A DNA stretch of 64,000 nucleotides from Candidatus Pacearchaeota archaeon CG_4_10_14_0_2_um_filter_35_33 (GCA_002792635.1 PFOR01000027.1:2563-66562), one strand, 5' to 3'. Shown: positions 4,584 through 56,378, numbered from the stretch's first letter. Notes: a model not told the origin generated them from the letters alone. Translations and numbers: made by a program.

Positions 4584-4608
4584 TTAGCTAAACATATAAA
4601 AAGAAAAA

Positions 4609-5097: not shown

Positions 5098-5131
5098 GAA
5101 ATATTAAAAACTAAAAAAGGTAAATAAAAGG

Positions 5132-5683: not shown

Positions 5684-5688
5684 AGGAA

Positions 5689-6228: not shown

Positions 6229-6247
6229 GAAGATTTAAATAAAAAAT

Positions 6248-7795: not shown

Positions 7796-7828
7796 AAGGT
7801 ATATAAACGTTAATTTGTTTCTTAAAGT

Positions 7829-7993
7829 ATGAAAAAAGAGGATGCGGGGACGCTTTTTCAGTTAAATGAATCTTTAAAGGAGGCCGTAAATAAGCTGGGA
7901 TATTTTTACAATAAAGGAGATAAACAGAATTTTGAGGCTGTTAAACAAGAAATTCTGGCTATTCAGGGAAAGATTGACGCGTTGGCGAGATAA
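7829..7993 (+). CDS. Small helical protein (54 aa, below the ORF-track cutoff)
   Basis: ATG lies 29 nt downstream of TATA TATATAAA (7800-7807). The sequence is heptad-like, MKKEDAGTLFQLNESLKEAVNKL...ILAIQGKIDALAR. Confidence 0.4.
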   Translation: MKKEDAGTLFQLNESLKEAVNKLGYFYNKGDKQNFEAVKQEILAIQGKIDALAR

Positions 7994-7994
7994 G

Positions 7995-9302: not shown

Positions 9303-9303
9303 A

Positions 9304-10200: not shown

Positions 10201-10890
10201 CATTTCATAAGTTATGTTTATGTCCTTTAGTATTTTTTCAAACCAAAATCTTCTTGGCTTATCCATTGGTCTTCCAGACAAAGTTATTATAGGAAAACTC
10301 GCTATTAACTTCTTACATTTTATCGAAGATAGAAAGGTTTTTACATCCTTATGGGGCATCTTTACTATATCAAAAACCTTTAGGATTAAACAAATGTCTG
10401 CTTCTGGCAATTGCGGAAGTGTTCTTATATCTGATAAGATTAACTTGTAATCTATTTTATTTTTTTCAAAGAATATTTTTAAAATTTTAAGATTGTTTTC
10501 ATCCACATCTTGAGCATAATATTTCGCGCCTGTTTTTGCCAAGACAATTGGATTGAGACCACAACCTATATCCAAGATAGATTTGGGATTATTTTGAAAT
10601 ATTTCTTTTTTTAAATCTGGATAAAAAGAAACCCTTTCATTGGTGGATTTATGATTTTGTACTATTTTGTCAAACTCTCCTTTTTCTGCCAATTTTAATA
10701 ATTTTGATGAGCTCTTGAATCTTCCCACTAATTTTCTTAGTTCTGCCCTAACTTCTTTTATTACAATTTTTTCATCTTTTTTTGATTTTGGTTTTATCTT
10801 TTCCAGCACTTTTTTTAGGGAATCTTGAACGACTGAATCCGAAATTCCCGAGAGTTCTTTTTTCTCTTTGATTTTTCTTACATAATTCAT
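10156..10890 (-). CDS. FmrO-family (ArmA/Rmt-like) 16S rRNA methyltransferase homolog
   Basis: Collinear motif matches to ArmA as recalled: HKSTNERV (ArmA HSSTNERV), ILDIGCGLNP (ILDFGCGFNP), YAQDVD (YHAYDID), SFPIITLSG (SFPIKSLSG), NEIFY (NELVY). The length of 244 aa is similar. Confidence 0.7.
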   Translation of the reverse strand: MNYVRKIKEKKELSGISDSVVQDSLKKVLEKIKPKSKKDEKIVIKEVRAELRKLVGRFKSSSKLLKLAEKGEFDKIVQNHKSTNERVSFYPDLKKEIFQNNPKSILDIGCGLNPIVLAKTGAKYYAQDVDENNLKILKIFFEKNKIDYKLILSDIRTLPQLPEADICLILKVFDIVKMPHKDVKTFLSSIKCKKLIASFPIITLSGRPMDKPRRFWFEKILKDINITYEMLHSQNEIFYCSKND

Positions 10891-10911
10891 TTAATAAAGA
10901 GCTGAGAAAGT

Positions 10912-10919
10912 TATTTAAA
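10912..10919. promoter_or_regulatory. Single TATA box (TATTTAAA / TTTAAATA) shared by divergent genes 10890(-) and 10941(+)
   Basis: The 50-nt spacer has 21 nt on each side of the octamer, so the octamer starts 29 nt upstream of each ATG. Confidence 0.65.
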
Positions 10920-10940
10920 TCTGTTTAGATACCTGAGAAC

Positions 10941-11639
10941 ATGAGGGGAAAGAGAGGTCTGCAGCATGTTGAATTTATAGTTTCTTTTGTGGTATTTGTT
11001 AGTTTTCTTGCACTTGCCTTCTATTTTTTTAGCCCTGTTCGGGGGGACAGGATAGTGGATTCAACTCTTTTTTACACTTTTGATGAAATAACTGATAATG
11101 CTACAGTAAGACTGGCTACATATTCATTAAACATGGATAAAAATCTCCAGGAAAATGTTGTAGGTATTCCATTTCCTGAGGAGGCAGGCTTGGGTGTCAG
11201 GGCAGAAAATCAAGATGGAATAGTTAGGGGAAGCGGGTTTGATGAGTCTAATGTTTATATTAACAGAGGGGGGGATTCCTTTTTCTTTTTGTTTTTTTCT
11301 GAAGAATACCCTGATTCAGGAGTTAGAGGAAATATCTTAAGTTCTGATAATTATACTGTTTCATCTTCGGAAGAAAGATATGTTTATAGTGAAAATAAGA
11401 TTCTATATCTAAAGGGTATTTATGACAGCGACTCTGGATATGAAAAACTGAAAAAAGAGTTTAATCTCCCTGTTAGGAGTAGTTTTGGTTTTGTTGTTGA
11501 GTTTGATGACGGGACAAAGATTTCTGCAGAAAAGAATATACCTGAAGGATTAGAGGTATTTAGCGAAGATAAAAGAATAGAAATTTTAAAGAAAAATGGA
11601 AAAATAGAGTTCGCTAATCTGAGGGTGATAATATGGTGA
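10941..11639 (+). CDS. Class III signal peptide (pilin-like) protein
   Basis: MRGKRG|LQHVEFIVSFVVFVSFLALAF. Confidence 0.55.
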   Translation: MRGKRGLQHVEFIVSFVVFVSFLALAFYFFSPVRGDRIVDSTLFYTFDEITDNATVRLATYSLNMDKNLQENVVGIPFPEEAGLGVRAENQDGIVRGSGFDESNVYINRGGDSFFFLFFSEEYPDSGVRGNILSSDNYTVSSSEERYVYSENKILYLKGIYDSDSGYEKLKKEFNLPVRSSFGFVVEFDDGTKISAEKNIPEGLEVFSEDKRIEILKKNGKIEFANLRVIIW

Positions 11640-36948: not shown

Positions 36949-37671
36949 ATGGAGATGCCTATGGAAATGCAACATCAAGCAATGGGTTATGACAGAGCTG
37001 CGACTATGTTCTCGCCCGATGGACATTTATTGCAAGTAGAATATGCTGAGAAGACTGTTAGATTGGGAGGCACTAGCATAGGTCTTGTATGTAGCGATGG
37101 AGTTTTAATTATGGCTGACAAAAGGATTAGGGATAAGTTGATTGCCCCTGAATCTGCTGATAAGGTGTTTGAGATTGATGAGCATGTGATTGTGACTGCA
37201 GCAGGGATAATGAGTGATGCGAGAGTCTTGATAGATAAAGCTCAATTATTGGCTCAACAAAATAGGGTGAATTATGGAAGCCCTATAGAACCAGTTTCTG
37301 TAATAAAAATGATTGCAGACAGTAAGCAGATGTTTACTCAGTATGGTGGGGCAAGACCATTTGGCGTTGCTGTGATGTTGGGAGGAACTCATAAAGGAGA
37401 ATCACACCTATATACGACAGATGTTACTGGAAACTACTTTTCTTATAAGGCGAACGCGATTGGAGAAGATGATGAACCAATTAAAGAGAAACTTAGAAAG
37501 GACTACAAGGAAATGCCAATAGACCAAGGAATAAGTTTCTTGTTGAAGATATTCAAAGAGATTTTAGGGAAGAACTTTGACATTGGAAGATTTGACACTT
37601 GTTATATTAAAAAGAGTGACAACAAGATTGTGAGATTGCAGGGCGATAAATTAAAGAAGTATGTTAAATAA
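36949..37671 (+). CDS. psmA: Proteasome subunit alpha
   Basis: YDRAATMFSPDGHLLQVEYA signature. An AAGGAG Shine-Dalgarno sequence lies 9 nt upstream. Confidence 0.9.
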   Translation: MEMPMEMQHQAMGYDRAATMFSPDGHLLQVEYAEKTVRLGGTSIGLVCSDGVLIMADKRIRDKLIAPESADKVFEIDEHVIVTAAGIMSDARVLIDKAQLLAQQNRVNYGSPIEPVSVIKMIADSKQMFTQYGGARPFGVAVMLGGTHKGESHLYTTDVTGNYFSYKANAIGEDDEPIKEKLRKDYKEMPIDQGISFLLKIFKEILGKNFDIGRFDTCYIKKSDNKIVRLQGDKLKKYVK

Positions 37672-38342
37672 TGGCAATAGTTGAAGCAAAGAAAAGAATT
37701 GGAAGCAAGGTTTATGAAGTTTCTGTTGAGTTTGATGAGGCGATGAAGGTTAAGAAAGGTGAAGGGGACATTGCGAGTGCGTTAAATTCTCCAAATGTTT
37801 TTTATGATGCTAAGAAGGGATTGAAGGCGAGTAATGAAGATTTGAAGGATGATTTTGGGACGGATGATGTGTATGAAGTTGCAAAAAAAATTATCAAGGA
37901 AGGTGAATTGCAAAAGCCTCAAGAATTTAGAGATGCTGAAAGAGAAAAAAGAGTAAAACAGGTTGTTGATTTGATTTTGCGGAATGCTGTGGACCAACAT
38001 GGTAAACCATATACAGAGGATAGGATTAGAAGAGCCATTGATGAAGTGCATTATAGTTTTGACAACAGGCCTGCTGAACAACAGATGAAGGAAGTTGTTG
38101 AGAAATTGAAAGTTATAATCCCAATAAGTTTGCAGATTAAGAGATTGAAGTTAACAATTCCTGCTCAGTATACGGGACAAGTTTATGGAGTATTGCAAGA
38201 TTACAAGGAAAAAGAAGACTGGAAAAATAATGGAGATTTAGAGGTTGTTATTAGTATTCCTGCGGGAATGCAGTTGGATTTCTTTGACAAGTTGAATAAT
38301 GTTACCCATGGGGCTGTCCAGAGCGAGGAATTAGCAAGCTAG
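37671..38342 (+). CDS. sdo1: SBDS/Sdo1 ribosome maturation protein
   Basis: FYDAKKGLKASNEDLKDDFGTDDVYEVAKKIIKEGELQ is typical of the SBDS N-terminal (FYSH) domain. It sits in the conserved position after psmA. Confidence 0.85.
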   Translation: MAIVEAKKRIGSKVYEVSVEFDEAMKVKKGEGDIASALNSPNVFYDAKKGLKASNEDLKDDFGTDDVYEVAKKIIKEGELQKPQEFRDAEREKRVKQVVDLILRNAVDQHGKPYTEDRIRRAIDEVHYSFDNRPAEQQMKEVVEKLKVIIPISLQIKRLKLTIPAQYTGQVYGVLQDYKEKEDWKNNGDLEVVISIPAGMQLDFFDKLNNVTHGAVQSEELAS

Positions 38343-38345
38343 TAG
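38336..38345. repeat. Left copy of the 10-bp direct repeat AAGCTAGTAG (putative target-site duplication)
   Basis: It is identical to 46165-46174 and contains the SBDS TAG stop. Confidence 0.65.
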
Positions 38346-38369
38346 TGCATTGTTGCATTGTTGGGACTT
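38346..38369. repeat. Left terminal inverted repeat of the island
   Basis: 38348-38369 reads CATTGTTGCATTGTTGGGACTT. The reverse complement of 46142-46163 reads CATTGTTGCATCTACGGGACTT, so 18 of 22 positions are identical. Confidence 0.65.
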
Positions 38370-38405
38370 TTTCTTGATTGTTTTTAAAACATGATTAAAT
38401 AAAAG

Positions 38406-39326
38406 TTAATTTTCAGTTTTGTTTTCTTTATTGGTATTCAAAATAATGACAAAATTACTTATCGCTGAGAATTCTTTAAACATATCTAGAAAGAAATGAA
38501 TAACAACAGGATTTTTCTCTTTCAAAATTTCTAAAGAATCTTCGCTTATTGTTTCTCTTTCATCTAAGAAAGATTTAATTTTAATCATATCTTGGTTTTG
38601 ATAAGCACTCATAAGTTCTTGATAAAAATCCTTAGTCTTTTTTATTAAATTGGATTCTATTTCATTAAGTTTTGAATTATTATCTTTTGCATATTTATAC
38701 GAATAAATTATTGATCTTGAAATATTCAAGAGCCCTATTAAAAAATTATAAGCATATTTCGACGTATTCTTGCCAAAAACTAAATTCTTATTTATTAGTC
38801 TTTTTGAGAGATTAATAAGTTTTGTTACAACTTTATGTATCTCTAAAGTTTCGTCAAAATTAGAATAACTTTTTTTCTCAATATCCTCAATAAAATAATC
38901 AAATTGCGAGAGAATCTGAAATAAAATTCTTTTTACGTTGTTGTCAAACTCTATTGTATCAATTGACGCTACAGCTTTTATTATGCAATGTTTTGGATTA
39001 CTTTCAACAATTTCAAAGCCAGTAAGTTCAGCCAACACTTTTCTGATTAGGGATAATTGTTTTTGTTCAGTATAATTTATTTTGATTTCATCAAATCCAT
39101 AGGTATAAAGATGAGAAAGAATGCGGTTAATATACCATTCTCTTTCATTGGAAAAATTTATTTCAATTGACAAAAACTTTGTTTTTTCTGGACTTATAAT
39201 TAAGCCTCTTTCAGAAATATCTATGTTTAAAAATTGTCCTTTCTTTATGTTATTGCTTTTAACCCATTTTGATGGTAATGACAAACTTAATGTGCTATTT
39301 CCATGCTGAACTATCTTTCTTTTCAT
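38406..39326 (-). CDS. AbrB/SpoVT-domain + PhoU-like domain regulator
   Basis: N-terminus KIVQHGNSTLSLSLPSKWVKSNNIKKGQFLNIDISERGLIISP is a SpoVT-AbrB fold motif. The C-terminus is a helical PhoU-like repeat region. Confidence 0.7.
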   Translation of the reverse strand: MKRKIVQHGNSTLSLSLPSKWVKSNNIKKGQFLNIDISERGLIISPEKTKFLSIEINFSNEREWYINRILSHLYTYGFDEIKINYTEQKQLSLIRKVLAELTGFEIVESNPKHCIIKAVASIDTIEFDNNVKRILFQILSQFDYFIEDIEKKSYSNFDETLEIHKVVTKLINLSKRLINKNLVFGKNTSKYAYNFLIGLLNISRSIIYSYKYAKDNNSKLNEIESNLIKKTKDFYQELMSAYQNQDMIKIKSFLDERETISEDSLEILKEKNPVVIHFFLDMFKEFSAISNFVIILNTNKENKTEN

Positions 39327-39436
39327 TACTTTCTTAAATACACAATAATATATAAATCTTTTGAAAATATGTATTTATATACAAATTATAAATATAAACA
39401 CCAAAAGTATATATTTCTCTGCATCTTTATGATTTT

Positions 39437-40144
39437 ATGAGTATAAATTTGCCTCAAATAAATTATGGAAAATTGAAAGGAAGAGTTGAAGATGAACAAA
39501 ATATTGTTTACTATAGGAGGGGGCTTGAAGAGTTATCTTTGAATGTAACAAATGCTTGTCCCAATGCTTGCGCATTTTGCATACGTGACAGAGATCTAGG
39601 ATGGGGTGTTTCAAATCTGTATCTTTCCAGAGATCCTAGTGCTGAAGAAATTATGCAAGCATATGATGAAGAATCTGAGAAAATTTTAGCTTTAGGAGTT
39701 GATATCAAAAAAATAAAAATTTGTGGTTATGGTGAGCCGATACTTAGGTTTGAAGATCTGAAACCAATCGCAAGACATATCAGAGAAAGGGATAGCAATG
39801 ATAATTTAGAAATACAGGTTACAACTACTGGATGGCCTTATTTTAGATTTATTAGTCCGGATGCAAGAAGAATTAGCGAACTTAAAGAGGCAGGCGTATC
39901 TCATATCTATCTTAGTGTTAATGCGTTAGACAAAAAAAACTATGATAAATTAGTAAGACCCGGAATTAACGAAATTGATAATGATGCTTTTAGTGATGCC
40001 TTAAAATTTGGCGCGGGGGCAAAAAAAGCAGGTCTTGATGTTACTTTGGGATTCATACGACTTGGGAAAATAACTAATGAAAAAGTAAAATCATTTGCTG
40101 AAAGATATGGTATGAGATATAGATTACGAGATTTTGAGGAGTAA
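39437..40144 (+). CDS. Small radical SAM enzyme (235 aa)
   Basis: CX3CX2C cluster motif NACPNACAFCIR and GYGEPIL glycine-rich SAM motif. TATA lies 29 nt upstream of the ATG. Confidence 0.8.
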   Translation: MSINLPQINYGKLKGRVEDEQNIVYYRRGLEELSLNVTNACPNACAFCIRDRDLGWGVSNLYLSRDPSAEEIMQAYDEESEKILALGVDIKKIKICGYGEPILRFEDLKPIARHIRERDSNDNLEIQVTTTGWPYFRFISPDARRISELKEAGVSHIYLSVNALDKKNYDKLVRPGINEIDNDAFSDALKFGAGAKKAGLDVTLGFIRLGKITNEKVKSFAERYGMRYRLRDFEE

Positions 40145-40145
40145 A

Positions 40146-40913
40146 ATGGAAGAAACATATGTTAAAGATTATTTTAGTAGGAAGGGGACAGTTTCCTCAT
40201 GGCGGGAACCAGAAACAGGTGATAAATCACATATTTTTGCAAGAGAGATTAAAATATTGGAGGAAATGTTAGATGGGGAAAAGGCAACTGATGCTCTAGA
40301 TATCGCATGTGGGAAGGGAAGGATCTCAAGAACGTTAAACCAAAGAAGACTAAAAACTATTTCTTTAGACATTTTTCAAGAAATGCTTGATATTGGTTAT
40401 CAGAGAGGCGATATTGCCAAAATGCATAGGGGGGATGGAGAAAATTTACATTTTGATGACGAATCTTTTGACGTAGTTACTTGCATTGATGCTCTAGTCC
40501 ATTTCCCAAACTATAAAAAAGCAATTAGCGAAGCTTATCGGATTCTCAGACCAAATGGTGTTTACCTTTGTACGACTAGTAATCCTTATGATTTAGGATT
40601 TATTCCGAGAGTTATATCAAAAGGTATAAGGGCAATTTTTAATAGAGAATCAAGTAGTAAAGGAGAAGGAATATTTCGATATATTACACCAAGTGAAATG
40701 AGAGGAGTCTTAACAAATCAGGGATTTCAAATAGAAGAAGAAACAAGATTGGGAGTTTTGGCTCCAGTTGAAGTTAAGAGTAAGAATGGAAAATATTTCT
40801 ACTTAATTTCGGAATCATTTTCAAGAAGATATGATAATTTAGACAGGGTGTTGGAAAATCTTCCAGTAATTAATAAATTGGCGATAATTTCAGTTTACAA
40901 AGCAAGAAAATGA
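40146..40913 (+). CDS. Class I SAM-dependent methyltransferase
   Basis: ALDIACGKGRIS motif I and FDVVTCIDALVHFPN. The ATG lies 1 nt after the radical SAM stop. Confidence 0.8.
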   Translation: MEETYVKDYFSRKGTVSSWREPETGDKSHIFAREIKILEEMLDGEKATDALDIACGKGRISRTLNQRRLKTISLDIFQEMLDIGYQRGDIAKMHRGDGENLHFDDESFDVVTCIDALVHFPNYKKAISEAYRILRPNGVYLCTTSNPYDLGFIPRVISKGIRAIFNRESSSKGEGIFRYITPSEMRGVLTNQGFQIEEETRLGVLAPVEVKSKNGKYFYLISESFSRRYDNLDRVLENLPVINKLAIISVYKARK

Positions 40914-41842
40914 TCTCTATAATTATTTCTGCCCATAATGAAGAAAAGAATATAAAAAATATACTTGAAGATGTAATAAAAGAAATGAGTTTATTAAGAG
41001 AAGATAGTAAATTATTCATCGGATTGAGCGGTTGTACTGATAAAACAGAAAAAATTGCAAGAGATACAATAAAGAATCATGATCAAAAAATCTTAATTGT
41101 AAAAACTCCCTTAGGTAAGATTAGTTCTCAAAAGAAGATTATTAAATTGGTAAATGAAAAATCTTGGGGGATTTTATTTTTAGATTGTGATGTACGGCTT
41201 AAAAAATATGCAATAAGGAACATAGTAGCTGACGCAAGAAGATATCAAAAAGTAAAAATGTTTTATGCGAAAGAAATTCCTCTTCCAAGAAAGAGCATTT
41301 TCTATAATATAATAAATGTTAGAACCTTAAATCCAAACTACGTAATAGCAAAAGAAAATGTATCTGACTTTCATCCATATATTAAGAATAAAAATAAAAA
41401 GGTATTCGCAACAGGGGGTATGTATCTCATAAGAAGAGGAATTTATGACGTTGATGGAAAAACTATTGGCGATGATAGTTATTTGACTCATTCCATCTAC
41501 CATAGATTTGGTTTTGGAACTATTAAACAAACAGAGAATGCAATTGTTTATTATCAGCCGGTTTATACTTTTAGAAGTTGGATAAAAAAATGGGAGAGGA
41601 TATGGAGCGATATAAACAATTTATATTCATATCATCCTGAATTTAAATATCAGGAGAAATATATGAAACTAAAAATAGGTTTCAGAAAGCTCATTAAAGA
41701 AAGAAAAATAAAATTGATCATTTTCTTTTCTTTTGAACGAACATGGAATAATATTGGGGGATTTGTCTTTAGAAAATTTCTTCTTAACAAAGAGAGTAAA
41801 TGGGACCAATTAAAAGATACTAAAGAGGTAATATTCAAATGA
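40910..41842 (+). CDS. Family 2 glycosyltransferase
   Basis: ISIIISAHNEEKNI N-terminus and an FLDCDV (DxD-like) motif. ATGA overlap with the previous gene. Confidence 0.85.
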   Translation: MISIIISAHNEEKNIKNILEDVIKEMSLLREDSKLFIGLSGCTDKTEKIARDTIKNHDQKILIVKTPLGKISSQKKIIKLVNEKSWGILFLDCDVRLKKYAIRNIVADARRYQKVKMFYAKEIPLPRKSIFYNIINVRTLNPNYVIAKENVSDFHPYIKNKNKKVFATGGMYLIRRGIYDVDGKTIGDDSYLTHSIYHRFGFGTIKQTENAIVYYQPVYTFRSWIKKWERIWSDINNLYSYHPEFKYQEKYMKLKIGFRKLIKERKIKLIIFFSFERTWNNIGGFVFRKFLLNKESKWDQLKDTKEVIFK

Positions 41843-42435
41843 AGACAATCTTGTTAGAAGGAACTGAATTAAGTGGGAAAACAACACTTGCAAAAAGCGT
41901 TAGACAAAAGTTGACAAACGAAGGATTTAATATTGTTATTAATTCAGGCCCAATAAATAAGACTTCAAATTTGGTGAACACTCCCTTAAATATCGCTAAA
42001 AAAATACACTCACCATCCCTTAAAGAACTCTTATATACTTTAAGTTTGATTACAGATAGAGTTCCAAAAGAAATGTATCTGGAAGTTGATTTCTTTATGC
42101 AAGAAAGATACTTTCCAAGCGTAATTGCTTATTCAAGAGTGTTTAATTCTTTTGGGATTAATAGATATGTTGGCGATTATCTTCAAAGGTTATATCCTTC
42201 TTTTGATATTAATATTTTAGTTAAAACTAGTTTAGAAACAAGATTGGAAAGAATTAAAACTAGAAATATAAAAACGAAGTTGGACGAGATTATTGAAGAA
42301 AAACCACAAATCGCATCGGATTTAGAAAGAGAAATTCAGAGAGTTTTATGTAAAAAAAGAAACTATTTTGAGTTAAATACTGATGAGATGAACATTGATG
42401 AAGCAACAGAAGAAATTTATAGGAGGATAATATGA
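41839..42435 (+). CDS. P-loop kinase, thymidylate-kinase-like fold
   Basis: ILLEGTELSGKTTLAK (compare the Tmk motif EGxDGSGKTT), DRV and ERYFPSVIAYS segments collinear with Tmk. Substrate unknown. Confidence 0.6.
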   Translation: MKTILLEGTELSGKTTLAKSVRQKLTNEGFNIVINSGPINKTSNLVNTPLNIAKKIHSPSLKELLYTLSLITDRVPKEMYLEVDFFMQERYFPSVIAYSRVFNSFGINRYVGDYLQRLYPSFDINILVKTSLETRLERIKTRNIKTKLDEIIEEKPQIASDLEREIQRVLCKKRNYFELNTDEMNIDEATEEIYRRII

Positions 42436-43040
42436 ATATCCTAATTGTTGGAGCACATCCTGACGATTACGAATTAGGGATGGCAGGGACCATAAAAAAA
42501 CATATTGTAGAAGGGCATAATATAATTTCAATTATTATGTCAAATGGAGAAGCTATAGGAAATACTAATGAGCGAGTAAAGGAAGCAAAAAAATCTGCCA
42601 AATTCTTAGGTATAAAGACGATTTATTTTTTAAAATTTAAAGATACAAAAATAAGTTCAGGTATAGAGTCAATTAAAAAAATTGAACAAATCATTAAAAA
42701 GCATAAAATAGATAGAATATATACTCATTCATTGAGAGATACACATCAGGACCATAGGAACACTTGTCTGGCTGTTCTTTCCGCAGGAAGAAATATGAAA
42801 CAGATATTATTTTTTGAGTCTCCTTCATCAGATCTGGATTTTAGACCAACTTTCTTTATTGATATTTCCAATTATCTAAAAGAAAAGGTAAATTCATTAA
42901 ATATATACAAATCCCTATCAAAGCTAAAAAAAAGATACCTAGAAATTATGGCGATAAAAGATAGCGCATCTTTTAGAGGATATCAGAGTAATTTAAAATA
43001 TGCAGAATGTTTTGAAGTTTTTAGGTTTATAGAAAGATGA
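42432..43040 (+). CDS. PIG-L/LmbE-family deacetylase
   Basis: VGAHPDDYELGMAG and HQDH metal-binding motifs. Confidence 0.85.
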   Translation: MNILIVGAHPDDYELGMAGTIKKHIVEGHNIISIIMSNGEAIGNTNERVKEAKKSAKFLGIKTIYFLKFKDTKISSGIESIKKIEQIIKKHKIDRIYTHSLRDTHQDHRNTCLAVLSAGRNMKQILFFESPSSDLDFRPTFFIDISNYLKEKVNSLNIYKSLSKLKKRYLEIMAIKDSASFRGYQSNLKYAECFEVFRFIER

Positions 43041-43735
43041 AAATAACAATACACCAACCAAATTTCTTACCTTATTTAGGATTTTTTGATAAATGTGATT
43101 ATGCAGACATATTGGTTTTATATGATTCTACACAATTTAAAAAAAATGATTATCAAAATAGAAATAAAATTAAAGGAAAAGATGGATGGTTCTGGTTGAC
43201 AGTTCCAGTTAATTACAATTTCAGTGATGCAATAAATGAAGTAAAAATTGATAACTCAAAAGAATGGAAAAAAGACCACATAAGATCATTAGAAACATGT
43301 TATTCGGGTTCAAAATATTTTAATCGGTACTTCCCAAAAATAAGAGAAATCTATGAAAAAAATTGGAGTTTTATATCAAATTTTAATATAGGTTTAATTA
43401 GGTTTGTACTTAATGAATTGGGAATAAAATGTAAAGTTGTTTTATCTTCAGAACTAAAGATTAAAAATAATGGAACTGAGGCTCTAATTGAAATATGTAA
43501 AAAGTTAAAATCAGCAGGATATGTTTCTGGAAAAGATGGAAAAAAATATTTGGAGATAAAATCATTCAAAAAAGAAGGATTGGCTATAGAATTTCAAAAA
43601 TATCAGCACCCAGAATACAACCAAAAATTTGGAGAATTTAAACCTTATATGTGTATATTGGATTTACTATTTAATGAAGGACCGAATAGTTTAAAAGTAA
43701 TAAGAGATGGAAGATATTATGAAAGCGAATGTTAG
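43037..43735 (+). CDS. WbqC-like family protein
   Basis: MKITIHQPNFLPYLGFFDK...YQNRNKI...WLTVPV matches the WbqC family N-terminal pattern. Confidence 0.8.
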   Translation: MKITIHQPNFLPYLGFFDKCDYADILVLYDSTQFKKNDYQNRNKIKGKDGWFWLTVPVNYNFSDAINEVKIDNSKEWKKDHIRSLETCYSGSKYFNRYFPKIREIYEKNWSFISNFNIGLIRFVLNELGIKCKVVLSSELKIKNNGTEALIEICKKLKSAGYVSGKDGKKYLEIKSFKKEGLAIEFQKYQHPEYNQKFGEFKPYMCILDLLFNEGPNSLKVIRDGRYYESEC

Positions 43736-44153
43736 AGTTTCAGGCATTGTCTTTAAAGAAGAAAAAGTGGCTCTAGTCAAGCATGAAAATAAGTATAATG
43801 GAGTTTATTATCTTCTCCCCGGAGGAGGATTGGAAAGAGATGAAACAATTGAGGAATGCGCAATAAGAGAGGTAAAAGAAGAAATAGGATTAGATGTTAA
43901 GATTAAGTCTCTTGCATATTATGAAGATGTAGTTAGTGATGATGATCACACGTTACATTTAATTTTTAGATGCAAGATTATCGGAGGAAAAGTTGAGAAC
44001 TTGGACCCAGATAAGAAAGTTAAAGATATAATTTTTATGGATGAAGAAGAATTTAGGAAAGTAAAATTTTTCCCAGAAAAACTTAAAAAAACTCTTTTTT
44101 CAGAAAAAGATAATGACTTTCCCCTATCTTTAGGAAAAACCCCCTTTCCATAA
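43707..44153 (+). CDS. NUDIX hydrolase
   Basis: Nudix box GGGLERDETIEECAIREVKEEIGL. An alternative ATG lies at 43719. Confidence 0.85.
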   Translation: MEDIMKANVRVSGIVFKEEKVALVKHENKYNGVYYLLPGGGLERDETIEECAIREVKEEIGLDVKIKSLAYYEDVVSDDDHTLHLIFRCKIIGGKVENLDPDKKVKDIIFMDEEEFRKVKFFPEKLKKTLFSEKDNDFPLSLGKTPFP

Positions 44154-44156
44154 TCT

Positions 44157-44849
44157 CTATTTTTTAGTAGCTTTAATTATCAATATATCTCCCAGAAGGA
44201 GGGATCTATTTTTAGGAAACATAAAAACAGATAAAATTCTATAGGACATATCTGAAAAGAAATTTAATACAGCATAATTAAATTTTTTAAATAAATTATC
44301 TTTATCAGTATAATAAAGAGTGTACCCTGATGTCCTATTTTCAGTTATTTTATCTATTTTAAAATTATACTTTTCAAGCAAAAAGATAATCTCCCCCAAA
44401 TATAATGGATGGATATGCCGAGAACCTTTATTTCCAAATTCATTTTCTTGAAACCAATGAAATTCTGATTTGAATAGAAATTGAAGTTTTGATTTTACAT
44501 TCTGGATATTTGGAGTAGTTATTATAAGTTGCCCATTCTTCTTTATCACTCTACTTAATTCTTTTATGAATATTGCAGGATTTTCTAAATGCTCAATTAC
44601 TTCAACAGATACTATTTTATCAAAAAAAGAATTGTTAAATGGAATATTATTATTGAAATTTGCTTTTTTGAATGGAATCTTTAATCTAAATCTACTAGGA
44701 TCAATATCGCAAGCATATATCTTTCCATCTTTGTTAACTAATTGTTCTGTAAAAGAACCTTTTCCAGCACCGCAATCTAAGACTTTCTCACCCTTTATAT
44801 CTCCTAGCAATTCAAGTACTTTTTCATGTGTTCCTTTTGATGCTCCCAT
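44157..44849 (-). CDS. Class I SAM-dependent methyltransferase
   Basis: VLDCGAGKGSFT motif I and FDKIVSVEVIEHLENP. The ATG at 44849 fits a TATA at 44871-44878. Confidence 0.8.
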   Translation of the reverse strand: MGASKGTHEKVLELLGDIKGEKVLDCGAGKGSFTEQLVNKDGKIYACDIDPSRFRLKIPFKKANFNNNIPFNNSFFDKIVSVEVIEHLENPAIFIKELSRVIKKNGQLIITTPNIQNVKSKLQFLFKSEFHWFQENEFGNKGSRHIHPLYLGEIIFLLEKYNFKIDKITENRTSGYTLYYTDKDNLFKKFNYAVLNFFSDMSYRILSVFMFPKNRSLLLGDILIIKATKK

Positions 44850-44888
44850 CAATTGAAGAGGTTTTCTATAATTTAAATTACTTTCTAA

Positions 44889-45812
44889 TTATACCTTACT
44901 CATCTTTATCAAATCCAACCACCTATTTTTCCCTAGTTCTAATTCTGGAATAGCTAACTCATAAGGACGGCAATTAATTCCCTGATGTTTTCTTATGAAG
45001 TTGTAATAAATTTCATAACCTTTCATGATTGCAGAAGCAGATTCCATACAACCATGAAAGCCACGCATGACTTTTGTTCTTTCTCTAATTGAGTTATGCA
45101 ATCTTTCTATTGGATGATTAAAGCCTCTTTCTGAAGCAATAACTACATTATGAATAATTGGACTTTTATGGTTCCAATGGGTTTTTAACCCAAAACTTTT
45201 CTTTAACATTCTTGGATAACCTTTAAGTCAGTCAGTTGTAATAACTTTAGCTTGGTTTCCTGTTGCAAACTTACCCCTTTTCAAGACTTTGACCATGTTA
45301 TCAATTGTCCTGCTTTTCATGTAGCCAGAAGAAACCATAAAACGAGTTGTTGTGTCCATCATATCAACAAACCAATTTTGTTCTCTTCCTTTTTGATTTT
45401 TGCTTATTCTTCTGTGATATTCCATTTCATCAGATTGTAATTCAATTCCCGATTTAATTTGTAAGTTATCTGTTAGATTGCTTATCATAACTGCATACTT
45501 CGCAATCCAACGATAAGCAGTAGAATAATGGCAATTTTTAGGGTAGAACGCTTTTAGATGCTCTTGTATTTTCCTAAAACTCATCCCATTATAATATAGG
45601 TCCATATAAAGAGTTATTTTCTTTTCATGATTTTTCATCTTGTAAAATCCATCGTCAATAGAAAATCTCCTATTGCAATCTTTACAACCAAATCTCTGAA
45701 CATTGTCTCTATGTTCAGTTTTTCTTATTCCTCTCCTGATTACATTGTTAGAACTACAAAAAATACAGGAAACTTTTTTATACTTCTGTTCTATTATTTC
45801 TTTGGATTTCAT
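44889..45812 (-). pseudogene. IS6-family transposase interrupted by one in-frame TGA (codon at 45228-45230)
   Basis: N-terminal CxxC...CxxC Zn finger and an HTH. DDE contexts SDEMEY, VITTD, and NHPIERLHNSIRERTKVMRGF...IRKHQ (compare IS26 NNVIECDHGKLKRI..GFKS...LRKGQ). The two ORF-track ORFs are in the same frame: ...VITTD*LKGYPRMLKK... Confidence 0.75.
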
Positions 45813-45835
45813 TTGTTTAGCGACGTTTGGAATCT

Positions 45836-45855
45836 GAGGGTTCTTCGGAACCCTC
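45836..45855. other. Perfect 8-bp hairpin GAGGGTTC-TTCG-GAACCCTC in the transposase 5' leader
   Basis: Read directly. It is GC-rich in an AT-rich context. Confidence 0.6.
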
Positions 45856-45980
45856 TTACTTTAATTAGTATAACTACATAAAGTAATACTTCTATATAAA
45901 CCTTTCGGTAGTTAAGTAACCACTAACGAAGTATAACTATATTTAGTAAGATTTATATAGTTTGCTTATTAATTTATTCT

Positions 45981-46127
45981 ATGCCAGAAATAGAAATCAA
46001 AGTTAAAGGATACAAATGTAATAATTGTGGGAACGAATGGTTACCTCGTTCAAAGAAAGAGAAGCCATTAATCTGTCCTAAATGCAAATCTGCAAGATGG
46101 GATAAACCACCAAGAAAGAAAACTTAA
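45981..46127 (+). CDS. Small Zn-ribbon protein (48 aa, below the ORF-track cutoff)
   Basis: CNNC...17 aa...CPKC. TATA TTTATATA (45952-45959) lies 29 nt upstream of the ATG. Confidence 0.5.
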   Translation: MPEIEIKVKGYKCNNCGNEWLPRSKKEKPLICPKCKSARWDKPPRKKT

Positions 46128-46141
46128 TTTTTTACTTATCC

Positions 46142-46164
46142 AAGTCCCGTAGATGCAACAATGT
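46142..46164. repeat. Right terminal inverted repeat of the island
   Basis: AAGTCCCGTAGATGCAACAATG is the inverted counterpart of 38348-38369. Confidence 0.65.
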
Positions 46165-46174
46165 AAGCTAGTAG
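46165..46174. repeat. Right copy of the 10-bp direct repeat AAGCTAGTAG
   Basis: Identical to 38336-38345. Confidence 0.65.
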
Positions 46175-46255
46175 GAATATTTATAAACCCTTGATATGGA
46201 TAAGTTGTATAGTTGGGTTCGATTATGATTACCTAGCGGATAGATTATCATTAAG

Positions 46256-46963
46256 ATGGAGAACGAGATTAACGAAGCACATCAAGAAAGCAAAGAAGAT
46301 TCCGTTAGCAAGAAAAGGAAAATAGTTGTTCCTGGAGAGTTTATTGTTAAGGGTGAGGATTTCTTACCTGGTGATGGAGCTAAAAGAGAGGGAGATAATG
46401 TTATTGCAGATAGATATGGGTTGGCAGAGATTGCTGGCAGGATGATTAAGGTTATTCCTTTGTCTGGGGCTTATGTTCCGAGAAGGGGAAACGTTGTTCT
46501 TGGAAGGATTATAGATGTGTTATTTAATGGATGGCTTGTTGATGTCGATTCTGCAGGAAATGCTTTCTTGCCTATAGATGAGTCTCCAAGATTCATAAAC
46601 AGGAATGAAATGGATCAATTCTTGGCAATTGGGGATGTATTGGCTGCTAAGATATGGAGTATTAAAGGAAGGGGGATAGATTTAACATTGAAAGGAAGAG
46701 GATTAGGGAAATTAGATGGTGGATTTGTCTTTAGGATAAACCCTAGCAGGGTTCCAAGAGTTATTGGAAGAGAGGGAAGTATGATTACTCTCATCAAGGA
46801 AAAAACAGGAACTAATATTACTGTTGGACAGAATGGATGGATATGGATTAAAGGAGATAATTTGGATAATGAGATAAAGGCAAGAAATGCAATAGAGTTT
46901 GTTGCTGATAAAGTTCATGTTGATGGATTGACAGATAAAATGGAGCAATGGTTTAGTAATTAA
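46256..46963 (+). CDS. rrp4: Exosome RNA-binding subunit Rrp4 (S1 + KH)
   Basis: S1 segment RGNVVLGRIIDVLFNGWLVDV and KH segment VIGREGSMITLIKEKTG. Confidence 0.9.
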   Translation: MENEINEAHQESKEDSVSKKRKIVVPGEFIVKGEDFLPGDGAKREGDNVIADRYGLAEIAGRMIKVIPLSGAYVPRRGNVVLGRIIDVLFNGWLVDVDSAGNAFLPIDESPRFINRNEMDQFLAIGDVLAAKIWSIKGRGIDLTLKGRGLGKLDGGFVFRINPSRVPRVIGREGSMITLIKEKTGTNITVGQNGWIWIKGDNLDNEIKARNAIEFVADKVHVDGLTDKMEQWFSN

Positions 46964-51749: not shown

Positions 51750-53241
51750 AATCCAGTTGATCCTGCTGGCGGTTGCGGCTATCTGGTTTGCAATTAGACA
51801 TGCAAGTCTTTTTGTTTCCTGGAGAACCTTCGGGTCCTCTGACTCAAAGAACTTTGTTCTTTGAGCTTTGAAATGAAAGGCGAACTGCTCAGTAACACGT
51901 AGCTAACCTACCCTCAAGCCGAGAATACCCTCGGGAAACTGAGGCTAATACTCGATAGATGATAAAGGCTGGAATGCGTTATCGTCGAAATTTTGCGTGA
52001 GGATGGGGCTGCGGCGGATTAGGTTGTTGGCGGGGTAATGGCCCACCAAGCCGATGATCTGTATGGGTTTTTAGCGAAAGAGCCCAGAGAGGGAATCTGA
52101 GACACTATTCCCAGCCCTACGGGGTGCAGCAGTCGGGAATTTTTTGCAATGCGCGCAAGCGTGACAGAGCGAACCAGAGTGCTTTCCCGTATTGGGAAAG
52201 CTTTTGTCAGATGTAAATATTCTGACGAATAAGGACTGGGCAAGACTGGTGCCAGCCGCCGCGGTAATACCAGCGGTCCAAGTCGCAACCACATTTATTG
52301 GGTCTAAAACATCCGTAGCTTGCTATGTAAGTCCCTTGTGAAATCCGGCTTCTCAAGAGTCGAAGTGCAAGGGATACTGTATGGCTAGAGACTGGGAGAT
52401 GTAAGGAGTACGGATAGGGTAATGGTAAAATATGTTGATCCTTTCTGGACTAACGATAGCGAAGGCACCTTACAAGAACAGATCTGACAGTGAGGGATGA
52501 AGGCTAGGGGCGCAAAACGGATTAGATACCCGTGTAGTCCTAGCAGTAAACACTGCACACTAAACATTGGAACCTCTTCGGGAGGTTTCAGTGCTGCAGG
52601 GAAGCCGAAGAGTGTGCTACCTGGGAAGTATAGTCGCAAGGCTGAAACTTAAAGGAATAGGCGGGGGAGCATACATCGAGTGACGCGTACGGTTCAATCG
52701 GATTCCACACCGTGAACCTTACCAGGACCGACAGCAGAATGAAGGTCAGTCTAAAGGGCTTACCTGACACGCTGAGAGGAGTTGCATGGCCGACGTCAGC
52801 CTGTGTCGTGAGATGACCTGTTAAATCAGGTAACAGGCGAGACCCGTGTGTATATTTACTAAGTGTACAATATGCAGACTGCCGTGGTTAACACGGAGGA
52901 AGGTGCGGGCTACGTTAGGTAGTATGGCCCAAATGCCCTGGGCAACACGTGCGCGGCAATGCTGGATTCAAAGGGCTGCGACCCTGAAAGGGGAAGCCAA
53001 TCTCATAAACTCCAGCTTAGTTCAGATTGAGGGTTGTAACTCACCCTCATGACGCTGGAATTCGTAGTAATCGGGTTTAATCAGAGCCCGGTGAATAAGT
53101 CCCTGCTCCTTGCACTCACCGCCCGTCAAACGAACCGAGTTTTGCTTTGGCGAGGTCCGTCAGGAACGAACCTCAGTAAGACAAGGTAGGTTAAGTCGTC
53201 ACAAGGTAACCGTAGGGGAACCTGCGGTTGGATCACCTCCT
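51750..53241 (+). rRNA. rrs: 16S rRNA
   Basis: 5' ATCCAGTTGATCCTGCTGGCGG, GTGCCAGCCGCCGCGGTAATACC, decoding site CCGCCCGTCA, and 3' GGATCACCTCCT. Confidence 0.95.
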
Positions 53242-53243
53242 AT

Positions 53244-53286
53244 AAATTAATTTTAGAATTATGATGTGAAAATAATTTTGCATACC
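53244..53286 (+). other. 3' strand of the 16S processing helix
   Basis: Complementary to 51601-51639. Confidence 0.6.
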
Positions 53287-53299
53287 GTCAACTTCTTGA

Positions 53300-53313
53300 T
53301 AAGGTTTAAAAAC
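53300..53313 (+). promoter_or_regulatory. Promoter-like 14-mer TAAGGTTTAAAAAC inside the 16S-23S spacer, upstream of tRNA-Ala
   Basis: The TATA starts 32 nt upstream of the tRNA 5' end. The 17-mer ATAAGGTTTAAAAACCT is identical to the one upstream of RNase P RNA. Confidence 0.55.
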
Positions 53314-53336
53314 CTTTGAGAGATTATGGGTGTATT

Positions 53337-53407
53337 GGGCCCGTAGTCTAATGGTAAAATAGCTCGTTTGCACCGAGCAGTTCCGTGTTCGATTCACGGC
53401 GGGTCCA
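53337..53407 (+). tRNA. tRNA-Ala (UGC)
   Basis: 7-bp acceptor stem with G3:U70, anticodon loop TTTGCAC, and T arm CCGTG-TTCGATT-CACGG. The D stem is weak and AT-rich. CCA is not encoded. Confidence 0.8.
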
Positions 53408-53532
53408 CTTATTATAGTGGAGTCGAAATCATAAATCATTTTCACTTACGTGAGAGTTGGCGACGGACTTATCGTCGTGAATGAGGCGTGTGATTGATTT
53501 CACATGTCGTGCAGAGAATAATCAATGAAGCG

Positions 53533-53545
53533 AGTAGGCAAATCC
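53533..53545 (+). other. 5' strand of the 23S processing helix
   Basis: AGTAGGCAAATCC is perfectly complementary to 56387-56399. Confidence 0.65.
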
Positions 53546-53572
53546 ACTTAGTGTGTTCTATAGGAACAAAAC

Positions 53573-56378
53573 AGCATTTGATCTTATTTAAGCTAATAGA
53601 CGGATAGCTTGGTTTGGACTGTGATGAAGGACGTGGCAAGCTGCGATAAGCCTCGGCGAGGTGCATGCGACCATTGAACCGAGGATTTCCTAATGCGATA
53701 ACGTTTTATGTAGAGATGCAGATGGACGCCGGGAATTGAAACATCTTAGTACCGGCAGGAAAAGAAAGCAATTGCGATTCCCTTACTAGCAGCGAGCGAA
53801 AAGGGAACAGGGCGAACCGAATCTGCTCTTGAAAGAGAGTTAGAGATGTGGTGGATGCTAAACCTAAGTCATCGAGAAAAAGTTTTCTGGAAAGAAATAC
53901 CATAGAGGGTGATAGTCCCGTATTTGAAGATGATATGGCAGGCTCCGAAAGAGTAGGGCCTCCTAGATTGGAGGTCTGAATACAGGTAGATTAATACCTA
54001 ACCCTAAATATTAGTCCAAGTCCGATAGCGAACTTAGTACCGCGAGGGAAAGCTGAAAAGTACTCTTGAAAGAGGGTTAAAAGACTTGAAATCTATTAGT
54101 GACATGATGGTTACGGCATTACGGTGTTGTAACGTACGTTTGGAAAAATGGGCCAAGGAGTTCTCTTATTTGGCGAGGTTAAATTGAATCCATAGCGAAA
54201 GCGAGTGTGAAAGCGCGTTAGTCAAATGGGGGATGACCCGAAACCGGACGATCTATTCGTGGACAAGCTGAAGTTTCCCGAAAGGGGAATGGAGGGCTGA
54301 AGCGTTGTTGTGTGCATGCACTCGTATGATCTGCGAATAGGGGTGAAAAGCCTATCTAGTTCGGCGATGGCTGGTTCCTGCCGAAATATGCCTAAGTATA
54401 GTCTCGCACAGTTTGTTAGCGGGGTAAAGTACGGATAGAGTTTGCCAGGGCCGAAAGGTTACGGAGCTTCTTCCAACTCAGAACCTGTTAATTGCGTAAT
54501 GCGGGAATGGCGGGCAGTGCGTAAGGTACTGTTCGAAGACCGGAACAACGGAGAGTGGAGTTAAGGTCCCTAATTGTTTGCTAAGTGTAACAAACTTTGT
54601 CGGAAACCTAAGACAGCGAGGATGTAGGCCCAGAAGCAGCCATCATTTAAAGAAAGCGTAACAGCTCACTTGTTGAGGTTTCTGGCGGGAAAAATGGACG
54701 GGGCTAAGCAAACAACCGATACTCCACCAGCTCTAGCAATAGAGTTTGGGTAGGCAGGCGTGGATTCTGCGCAGAAGGTTTTGTGAAAGCAAGGCTGGAG
54801 CGGGATCCAATGAGAATCTTGGCGGTAGTAAGATCAGATTACACTGAGAATGTGTAGCGCCGGAAGAGCAAGGTTTCCTTGGCACTATTGTTTAACCAAG
54901 GGTTAGTCGGCACCTAAGCCATATCTTAACTGCGTATGGCGAATGGAAATCAGGTTAATATTCCTGGACCGATTATATTTGTATGCGTTTCACTTCGGGA
55001 TAGACGGGAGCTTGAAAGGGCTTTTAAACAAGAAAGTTATGGATCGTAATGATAAGAAGTTACTGAATTGTTTGACGAAAACCGTTGAATCCGGGGGTCC
55101 GTGAAAGAGCGTATGCTTATGATATAATTGGCCGTACCCAGAATCGGCACTGATGCTCTGGCTTAGAAGGCTAAGGCGTGAAAGGATAAACTAATTCAGG
55201 GAATTCGGCAATTTGGCCCCGTATCTTCGGTATAAGGGGTGTCTATAGGTGTCTTTGAATATAGAAGGCGTTTGTAGATCGCAGTGACAAGGACTGCCCG
55301 ACTGTTTACCAAAAACGTAGCTGGTTGCAAATCCGAAAGGACTAGTATAACCGGTGAGATCTGCCCAGTCACGGTGTTTCAAACCCTGGTTCAACAGGGC
55401 TAAGACCCGTGAAACGGCGGGCCTAACTATGAGGCTCTTAAGGTAGCGTAATGCCTTGTCGTTTGAATGGCGACGTGCATGAATGGTTTAACGAGGTAGT
55501 CGCTGTCCCGAATTAGGACCTTCTGAACACACTTGATGGTGAAGATGCCATCGTCTCCTAGTGGGAAGCGGAGACCTTGTGAACCTTTACTGCAACTTGT
55601 TGCTGTGGTCTTAGGAAGAGTGCATAGCATAGGTAGGAGCGTCGAAACCAAGTTTCTGGACTTGGTGGAGCGACCGTGTAATACTACCCACCCTTCTTGA
55701 GGCTACTCACCCGAGAGGGGACACCAGCAGGCGGGCAGTTTGGCTGGGGCGGCACCCTGCAGAAAAGATATCTGTAGGGCCCAAAGACAAGCTCATCCAG
55801 GTTGGAAATCTGGAGTAGAGTGCGAAGGCAAAAGCTTGTCTGACTGTATTTCGAACAGCAAGAAATGCAGAGGTGAAAGCCGGGCTTAGCGACCCCACAT
55901 AGCCTCTTAATAGGGCTTGTGTGTGACAGAAAAGGTACTCCAAGGATAACAGGCTTGTCGCCCCCGATAGTCCATATTGACGGGGCGGTTTGGTACATCG
56001 CTGTCGGCTCTTCCTATCCTGGTTGTGCATAAGCAACCAAGGGTGTCGGAGTTCACGCGTTAAAAGGGATCGTTAGCTGGGTTAAGAACGTTGCGAGACA
56101 GTTTGTATGATATCTACTAGGAGTGTTGTGGTTTGAGTGGAACGAGCAAGTAGTACGAGAGGAACCTTGCTTGGATGCCTCTGGTGAGCGGTTGTTACGA
56201 GCAGGCCGCGCAGCTACGCATTGTGTGGATAAGTGCTGAAAGCATCTAAGCACGAAGCCATCCGCAAGACGAGACCACATAGGCCGTTATAGAAGATAAC
56301 GTTGATAGAGTTGGTGTGTAAGAACCGAGGTAACGAGGTTTTAAGCATGCAACTACTAATAGCCACACTTCAAATGCT
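53573..56378 (+). rRNA. rrl: 23S rRNA
   Basis: Helix 1 pairing of AGCATTTGA (53573-53581) with TCAAATGCT (56370-56378). GATGAAGGACGTGGCAAGCTGCGATAAGC lies near the 5' end and GCTGAAAGCATCTAAGCACGAAG near the 3' end. Confidence 0.9.

Follow-up and report, generated by a model that had tools for sequence, protein, structure and literature searches.

A probable 7.8-kb unit transposon between SBDS and rrp4 of a DPANN archaeon, and a related family whose members tend to end beside core promoters

A 64,000-nucleotide stretch of DNA from Candidatus Pacearchaeota archaeon CG_4_10_14_0_2_um_filter_35_33 (GCA_002792635.1, PFOR01000027.1:2563-66562), here called the window, holds a 7,820-bp element at positions 38346-46165, between the genes SBDS and rrp4. 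We interpret it as a unit transposon, or transporter insertion sequence (tIS), made of one transposase gene, passenger genes and one pair of terminal inverted repeats and inserted whole, and we put the probability of this reading at about 0.9. The single transposase and its passengers lie within one repeat pair, the 9-bp sequence AGCTAGTAG stands on both sides of the whole unit, and a copy of the unit is present at a second locus (L092). The feature of a compound transposon, two complete insertion sequence (IS) copies around the cargo, is absent, there being one transposase in the window. Element and cargo went in together, behind the SBDS stop codon and ahead of the rrp4 promoter. Positions are those of the window unless a comparison locus (L001 and so on) is named.

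Ends, target duplication and host locus

The original prediction had placed here a 7.8-kb cargo element with a perfect 10-bp flanking duplication. The 10-mer in question, AAGCTAGTAG, occurs at 38336-38345 and 46165-46174 and nowhere else in the window (two occurrences, where chance would give 0.09), and in 100 shuffles a pair of matches never arose. The inverted repeats reported just inside it were also recovered, 38348-38369 and the reverse complement of 46142-46163 being identical at 18 of 22 positions with perfect 11-nt and 7-nt blocks, and the possibility of a chance match was checked: the 22-mer end has no other copy in the window at up to three mismatches. The arrangement of a direct repeat outside an inverted repeat therefore stands, but the duplication length has to be corrected. 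As 24 related elements show, it is 9 bp rather than 10, because the terminal repeats start two bases further out; the tenth matching base, an A, already belongs to the right repeat as its outermost position.

The left copy of the duplication AGCTAGTAG occupies 38337-38345, with the SBDS stop codon inside it, and the right copy 46166-46174. The terminal repeats between them are 24 nt long, imperfect and inverted, starting with TGCATTG at 38346 and ending, in reverse complement TACATTG, at 46165. The repeat distal to the transposase (38346-38369, plus strand) reads TGCATTGTTGCATTGTTGGGACTT and is of the end type with a central TTGT, which is conserved family-wide; the proximal one (46142-46165, minus strand) has the reverse complement TACATTGTTGCATCTACGGGACTT. 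The interior had been called AT-rich by eye, and its G+C content is indeed 29.3%, against 35.1% in the left flank, 35.8% in the right flank and 35.8% in the rest of the window.

The flanking core genes proposed earlier were identified by Pfam as SBDS (37671-38342), rrp4 (46256-46963), rrp41 and rrp42; a gene for the proteasome alpha subunit is also present in the flanks. The host is a DPANN archaeon, and its closest SBDS homologues are labelled Pacearchaeota or Nanoarchaeota. The identical locus is found in Joint Genome Institute (JGI) sample 3300003830 (L001, 100% identical to the window) and in the metagenome-assembled genome GCA_002794155.1 (L002). Within the element, two short stretches of the L002 contig, each about 55 bp, fail to align with the window (42398-42451 and 44575-44630) and are possibly scaffolding gaps or consensus errors; elsewhere the two are identical.

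An island gained by site-specific integration or homologous recombination could by chance lie between repeats, and AT-rich DNA does contain many short ones. The rarity of the 10-mer and the uniqueness of the 22-mer in the window argue against this, as does the fact that the same repeat ends dozens of related elements. Nor is there any integrase gene, no recombinase domain being found by Pfam in any open reading frame (ORF); moreover, the flanking repeats vary from copy to copy, which fits target duplications but not attachment sites. We regard this explanation as having a negligible probability.

A second copy, and relatives without the element

A search with the WbqC protein of the cargo led to L092, from JGI sample 3300010938. 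Its positions 3309-11155 align with 38345-46190 of the window over 7,849 bp, with 91.0% identity, and the two loci have nothing else in common: all 11 genes are colinear and 87-100% identical, while none of the genes that flank the L092 copy occurs in the 64-kb window. This copy lies between SecE and Spt5/L11, is bounded by a perfect 9-bp duplication of its own, CTTTTAAGG, and encodes an intact 307-aa transposase. Because the same unit is present at a second locus with its own duplication, cargo and transposase move together, which bears out the earlier proposal of a single unit carrying more than 6 kb of cargo rather than a compound transposon. Three alternatives are thereby effectively excluded: repeats that match by chance, an IS arriving next to an island, and a compound transposon in decay.

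The last two of these amount to two separate events, a 1.3-kb IS beside a pre-existing island or a compound or pseudo-compound transposon that lost one IS, with cargo that never moved with the transposase. Such histories are suggested by the way in which IS6 elements classically move cargo, as pseudo-compound transposons (PMC7986276), and by the single, broken transposase of the window. They are hard to reconcile with a 9-bp duplication that brackets the entire 7.8 kb, with the occurrence of the whole unit elsewhere in the same gene order, with both ends and a different duplication, and with a far end that is a bare repeat of 24-26 nt beside the cargo, without any IS remnant. All 24 complete members of the family, besides, have one transposase and two ends. 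We judge a two-event origin very improbable, and retain the insertion of one unit.

The two copies carry different lesions. In L092 (5110-5877) the first methyltransferase gene is split into calls of 78 and 176 aa and the transposase is intact; in the window the transposase is broken and the methyltransferase whole. About 60 nt around the distal repeat (38346-38369 in the window, 3310-3333 in L092) are identical except for five clustered differences, the central six nucleotides reading ATTGTT in the window and GTCTAC in L092, both of whose ends are of the CTAC type. The L092 distal end looks like the product of a conversion of one end by the other.

The insertion had been said to split a conserved SBDS-rrp4 order, and the closest SBDS relatives (L008, L009 and L010) do have rrp4 directly after SBDS. 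In the two closest, at 79% and 72% SBDS identity, the spacer is 138 and 99 nt long. Two motifs in the spacers of these relatives, TATA-CCCC and one in the leader, are also present at 46175-46255 of the window. Between the rrp4 TATA box and start codon, the motif TTGGGTTSGATTATGATTACCT is present both in the window (46210-46255) and in L009 (2160-2210), where SBDS identity is 72%; a small RNA or a conserved leader is a possible explanation.

Two further loci were not counted as a third insertion site: L093, a truncated relative next to rpl3 without the repeat, and L095, which has the same cargo cluster with an IS200/IS605 gene adjacent and no repeats. In L095 (564-6528) the cluster, with a WbqC protein about 79% identical, is followed by an IS200/IS605 Y1 transposase in place of the DDE transposase, and may represent a non-mobile or differently mobilised form. 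A relative with 70% SBDS identity (L011, 4672-8351) has a different block of 3.7 kb after SBDS, encoding HSP20, Cpn10 and Cpn60, then a 235-aa gene of rrp4 length that runs off the end of the locus, and none of the repeats of the family. The SBDS-rrp4 intergenic position may be variable for other reasons too.

Passenger genes

Apart from the transposase and a small zinc-ribbon gene, the element carries nine genes. The first (38406-39326, minus strand) encodes a protein of 306 aa that has an AbrB/SpoVT (MazE-type) DNA-binding domain at its N-terminus (PF04014, 26.2 bits, cut-off 24.7), is 94% identical in L092 and is probably a regulator. Seven genes on the plus strand follow: a small radical S-adenosylmethionine (SAM) enzyme (39437-40144, domain search), a class I SAM-dependent methyltransferase (40134-40913, Pfam), a family 2 glycosyltransferase (GT2; 40910-41842, Pfam), a dTMP-kinase-like P-loop kinase (41839-42435, domain search), a PIG-L/LmbE-type deacetylase (42432-43040, domain search), a WbqC-family protein (43037-43735, Pfam, 250 bits) and a NUDIX hydrolase (43707-44153, Pfam). 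A second class I SAM-dependent methyltransferase (44157-44852, minus strand, Pfam) completes the set. Judging from these generic domains, the nine genes are most likely a sugar or small-molecule modification cluster.

At the other end, and divergent from the transposase, a 48-aa zinc-ribbon protein of the CxxC...CxxC type is encoded at 45981-46127 (plus strand). The protein is conserved in 15 family members and is probably an accessory or regulatory factor.

The transposase and its classification

The transposase gene (44889-45812, minus strand, 307 codons) has the order zinc finger, helix-turn-helix (HTH), DDE domain. Its frame is interrupted at 45228-45230 by a TGA (VITTD*LKGY), which takes the place of a glycine (G195) that is invariant in an alignment of 25 homologues and encoded by GGA in relatives. 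Recoding of TGA was considered and rejected, since TGA is a normal stop here, ending 13 of 36 long ORFs of the window. On this evidence the gene is inactivated by a GGA-to-TGA nonsense mutation. A conserved TATA box, TTTATATA, lies upstream of the gene (45893-45900, minus strand), and a conserved hairpin, GAGGGTTC-CGAA-GAACCCTC, in its leader (45836-45855, minus strand), about 20 nt before the start codon. The hairpin recurs at homologous positions of L003-L027, with compensatory changes in three of five predicted pairs, a weak form of support; it may regulate transposase expression. A sequence search of the PDB returned no homologue.

The label IS6-like in the original prediction was a fair one, but IS6 membership does not follow from the scores. 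The best NCBIfam model for the window transposase is that of IS6 (NF033587), with 49.9 bits against a cut-off of 125, and the second, nearly equal, is that of IS1 (NF033558), with 46.8 bits against a cut-off of 100 and a match over residues 16-206. The Pfam domain DDE_Tnp_IS240 (PF13610) reaches 23.9 bits (cut-off 27) and the IS1/IS1595 zinc domain 22.1 (cut-off 28). Among 26 aligned members the IS6 model is best and the IS1 model second in all 26 (best E-values 1e-20 and 1e-15), the IS1/IS1595-type zinc domain is found in 24, and a DDE_Tnp_IS240 match is on record for many relatives.

The likeness of the repeat tip to IS6 ends, proposed earlier, can be seen against the published 14-bp IS6 consensus GGTTCTGTTGCAAA, in which G1, G2, G7 and also G10 are conserved (PMC6807381): the ends of this family read TGCATTGTTGCAT, identical at 8 of 14 positions, with G2, G7, G10 and the TGTTGCA core present and G1 absent. 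IS6 elements typically duplicate 8 bp, 9 bp being recorded for only one archaeal member, ISPfu5, and Harmer and Hall question the place of the archaeal "IS6" elements in the family (PMC6807381). IS6 elements measure 0.7-0.9 kb, at most about 1.8 kb, with the transposase as sole gene (PMC7986276, PMC6807381); their cargo is classically mobilised between two IS copies as pseudo-compound transposons, and the sole passenger-carrying member listed in a review, ISDsp3, has a single passenger gene (PMC7986276).

The element might be real and its transposase nonetheless belong to IS1, for example to the archaeal single-ORF or ISMhu11-like groups, rather than to the IS6 lineage. The two scores of the window protein are close, the IS1 match begins at the N-terminal zinc finger, and the zinc domain of IS1/IS1595 type is general in the family. 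IS1 duplications are of 8-9 bp, with 9 bp typical, a range that includes the 9 bp found here, and the ISMhu11 subgroup of IS1 extends to 4.6 kb in the ISfinder tables, the name itself occurring in no searchable paper. Against these stand the consistent rank and lower E-value of the IS6 model, the DDE_Tnp_IS240 matches, the TGTTGCA core with G7 and G10 as in GGTTCTGTTGCAAA, and a D-to-E spacing of 41 residues, nearer to IS26 (34 residues) than to IS1 (24 residues). An IS1 placement is, on balance, somewhat unlikely. By these profile matches the transposase falls in a zinc-finger/HTH/DDE family abundant in DPANN archaea whose nearest described relatives are IS6, then IS1; homology to IS6 is likely, and we call the transposase IS6-like without filing it as an IS6 member.

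The family in DPANN archaea

Intact 307-aa homologues at 82-93% identity to the window transposase are common, and 1,160 protein clusters matched it. Family loci came from look-ups of homologues and from a scan in which each species was represented by one genome. Of the 79 loci that the scan yielded, almost all are labelled Woesearchaeota, Pacearchaeota or Nanoarchaeota; a few belong to Parvarchaeota, Aenigmatarchaeota, Micrarchaeota and Bilamarchaeaceae. The repeat of the window element recurs at these loci. Viral contigs scanned with the transposase profile yielded no relatives. A look-up of P0071 for independent insertion sites gave a single site.

Complete elements were delimited with a script that pairs repeats and compares the nine bases outside them. 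Including L092, there are 24 distinct ones, from 1,993 to 7,821 bp, with perfect 9/9 duplications in 17, 8/9 in five and irregular ones in two. Each has one transposase and two ends, and a pair of flanking transposase copies was seen in none of them. Just outside the left duplication of L025 (about 1975-1989) is a sequence like the family repeat, TTAATGTTGCAATGCA, which suggests that an older element had left a remnant and that this one inserted beside it.

The ends are asymmetric in a conserved way: CTAC stands at the centre of the end by the zinc-ribbon gene, and usually TTGT at that of the other, and the window element conforms. Two layouts occur. Group A, which includes the window element, is ordered repeat, divergent zinc-ribbon gene, transposase, cargo, repeat. 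Group B is ordered repeat, promoter-like TTTTTAAG at about nt 33-40, cargo, transposase, repeat, and the first cargo start codon is at nt 63-65 in 7 of 10 elements. A TATA-like box is conserved in the first 40 nt after the repeat in L022, L024, L029, L033, L042, L043 and L054; to judge from these positions, leaderless cargo genes of group B appear to be expressed from a promoter in the element end.

Conserved sequence ends precisely with the stop codon of the transposase on one side and, on the other, about 26 nt inside the far repeat. Cargo is present in all 24 complete elements, with no cargo-free element in the sample. Among 62 cargo ORFs are 11 N6/N4 DNA methylases, accompanied by HinP1I, MjaI or HNH nucleases, and a further element has an MvaI/BcnI system. 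Transposases more than 90% identical to that of the window travel with unrelated cargo: an ABC transporter (L003, L016), an ADP-ribosylglycohydrolase (L018), AsnC-type regulators (L019), or an exonuclease, a methyltransferase and a nucleoside hydrolase (L014).

The original prediction knew of no such element in archaea. No description of the family was found in the searchable literature, which includes a 2026 survey of archaeal insertion sequences; the window element is not a one-off, being one member of a large DPANN family that is widespread and apparently undescribed.

Target preference

To the right of the insertion, at 46175-46187 (plus strand), is a promoter-like motif of rrp4, with GAATA resembling the TFB recognition element (BRE) followed by the TATA box TTTATAAA. 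It belongs to the host, since GAATA-TTTATAAA is also upstream of rrp4 in relatives without the element.

In the family, 21 of 63 unique ends have a TATA-like octamer at an offset of precisely 22 nt on the outer side of the repeat, the intergenic background being 1.5% (p ~8e-23), and 27 of 63 have one at 20-23 nt, with a background of 5.4% (p ~4e-18). The peak is one base wide, with 21 ends at offset 22, eight at 20 and 0-3 at most other offsets. At least one flank has the motif in 22 of the 24 complete elements, and it is commoner at the CTAC-type end (17/30) than at the other (10/33). An outward-reading ORF of at least 60 aa is present at 23 of 26 TATA-positive ends, with its start codon 43-46 nt from the repeat in 14. 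Reading outward, the consensus of the 21 exact-offset ends is a 9-bp duplication ending in AG, then AAAnn, TTTATAAA, about 21 nt and ATG, in which we take AAAnn-TTTATAAA to be the archaeal BRE/TATA consensus with a leaderless start codon after it. One end thus typically lies 5 nt from an outward-reading BRE/TATA box, as a statistical preference.

A palindromic target (CTnTnAnAG), suggested by the pooled logo of the duplications, was considered and withdrawn, because a logo that pools the two ends of every element is bound to be symmetrical. The true signal lies on one side only and reads AG-AAAnn-TTTATAAA.

Purifying selection in compact DPANN genomes, rather than target choice, could produce a fixed distance to BRE/TATA. 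Intergenic DNA makes up only about 16% of these loci, and in the window the SBDS stop is 5 nt (46175-46179) from the TATA box, with BRE-like sequence directly after it, leaving almost no other neutral position. Selection, however, should allow any position upstream of the BRE, where the observed peak at offset 22 is one base wide; the enrichment persists against an intergenic-only background, and the preference is seen in both element orientations and in distant subgroups. We think selection an unlikely explanation of the distance, and favour target choice over selection alone because of the narrowness of the peak.

As a tentative proposal, possible rather than probable, the family might be directed to archaeal core promoters, its transposase or zinc-ribbon partner recognising BRE/TATA or the bound TATA-binding protein (TBP) and transcription factor B (TFB) and inserting just upstream, about 44 nt before a leaderless start. 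In such compact genomes these sites would be a safe haven, and the family would be a general shuttle that carries restriction-modification systems and small metabolic clusters among DPANN archaea, and a prokaryotic counterpart of Ty3-type integration guided by promoter factors.

Proposed mechanism

In the mechanism that we envisage, the transposase would bind the two 24-nt ends, TGCATTGTTGCAT-N4-GGGACTT, and join them by DDE chemistry to a target cut with a 9-bp stagger, repair of which would give the 9-bp duplication. At this locus the duplication regenerates the SBDS stop on the left, and the rrp4 BRE/TATA is intact 5 nt to the right; because stop codon and promoter stay intact, the insertion was probably neutral to both neighbours. 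In the family at large, where one end tends to lie 5 nt from an outward BRE/TATA box and about 44 nt upstream of a leaderless start, the promoter would be recognised by its DNA sequence or through TBP/TFB, and the zinc-ribbon protein may have a role. Nothing but the transposase module and the two ends is constant, from which we infer that cargo is exchanged.

Evidence to the contrary

Several results count against our reading of the locus. The transposase of the window copy is a pseudogene, and because of its nonsense mutation this copy is unable to move on its own. No sign of current polymorphism or excision was found, the element being present in all 24 of the examined contigs that encode the identical SBDS protein. 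The empty site is predicted as ...GCAAGCTAGTAG joined directly to GAATATTTATAAACCC..., and its exact form, TTAGCAAGCTAGTAGGAATATTTAT, had no match in a scan of a metagenome collection; this negative is uninformative because the collection evidently lacks these samples, a positive-control 28-mer present in L001 and L092, both JGI contigs, also having 0 matches. Placement of the transposase between IS6 and IS1 is ambiguous, with every score under its curated cut-off. PADLOC and NCBIfam gave generic domain matches only for the cargo, and no recognised defence system. Finally, the preference for promoters is correlative and seen in insertions that have survived, and selection in compact genomes could contribute to it.

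Other features of the window

Positions 2677-2775 match the Rfam model of the bacterial small signal recognition particle (SRP) RNA with 50.3 bits (gathering score 40). The rRNAs, the RNase P RNA and the genes of the window are archaeal, and the match may be a reduced DPANN SRP RNA. A 16S-tRNA-23S operon occupies 51750-56378; its 23S gene spans only 2,806 nt, compared with 2,987 positions in the model, so that the 23S rRNA may be a shortened one.

Significance and comparison with known systems

Host-dependent and with tiny genomes, DPANN archaea gain and exchange genes in ways that are poorly understood. The family is a concrete vehicle for DPANN gene flow, near-identical transposases (above 90%) being combined with completely different cargo that ranges over many restriction-modification systems, ABC transporters and modification clusters. 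If the fixed insertion point upstream of BRE/TATA reflects true targeting, the family would offer a rare archaeal example of transposition directed to promoters, and it might serve as an insertion tool that spares neighbouring genes.

With IS6 and IS26 the family shares its best-scoring transposase models (NF033587, PF13610) and the TGTTGCA core with G2, G7 and G10 of GGTTCTGTTGCAAA; an N-terminal zinc finger is also found in longer IS6 members and a passenger gene in ISDsp3 (PMC7986276). It differs in scores far below the cut-offs (49.9 against 125 bits), in a duplication of 9 bp instead of 8, and in 24-nt repeats that start with TG rather than GG and have a conserved difference between ends (CTAC and TTGT). 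Its elements measure 2-7.8 kb and always carry cargo, unlike IS6 elements of 0.7-0.9 kb with the transposase alone, and have the extra conserved zinc-ribbon gene; cargo lies inside a single unit here, and between two direct IS copies in IS6.

IS1, whose model ranks second in NCBIfam, is similar in the order of an InsA-like N-terminal zinc finger, HTH and DDE domain and in the 9-bp duplication. The score again falls well short of the cut-off (46.8 bits, cut-off 100), the elements here have a longer D-to-E spacing, and their repeats are not known to resemble the IS1 ends.

In architecture the closest likeness is to tIS and Tn3-type unit transposons, which also have one transposase, one repeat pair, passengers inside and a duplication around the unit. 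Unlike Tn3-type elements, those of this family have DPANN archaeal hosts, no resolvase and a transposase of an unrelated family, and their cargo is often a restriction-modification system or a small metabolic cluster rather than resistance genes. Compared with tIS and unit transposons in general, the carriage of cargo appears to be the rule here and not the exception.

Ty3 integrates at RNA polymerase III (Pol III) start sites bound by TFIIIB/TBP, and Tf1 at Pol II promoters. The likeness to these is one of analogy only, in a fixed distance to a core promoter recognised by TBP and TFIIB-family proteins and in a neighbouring gene that is left intact. There the enzymes are retrotransposon integrases; here it is a prokaryotic DDE transposase, for which recognition purely of DNA sequence is possible.

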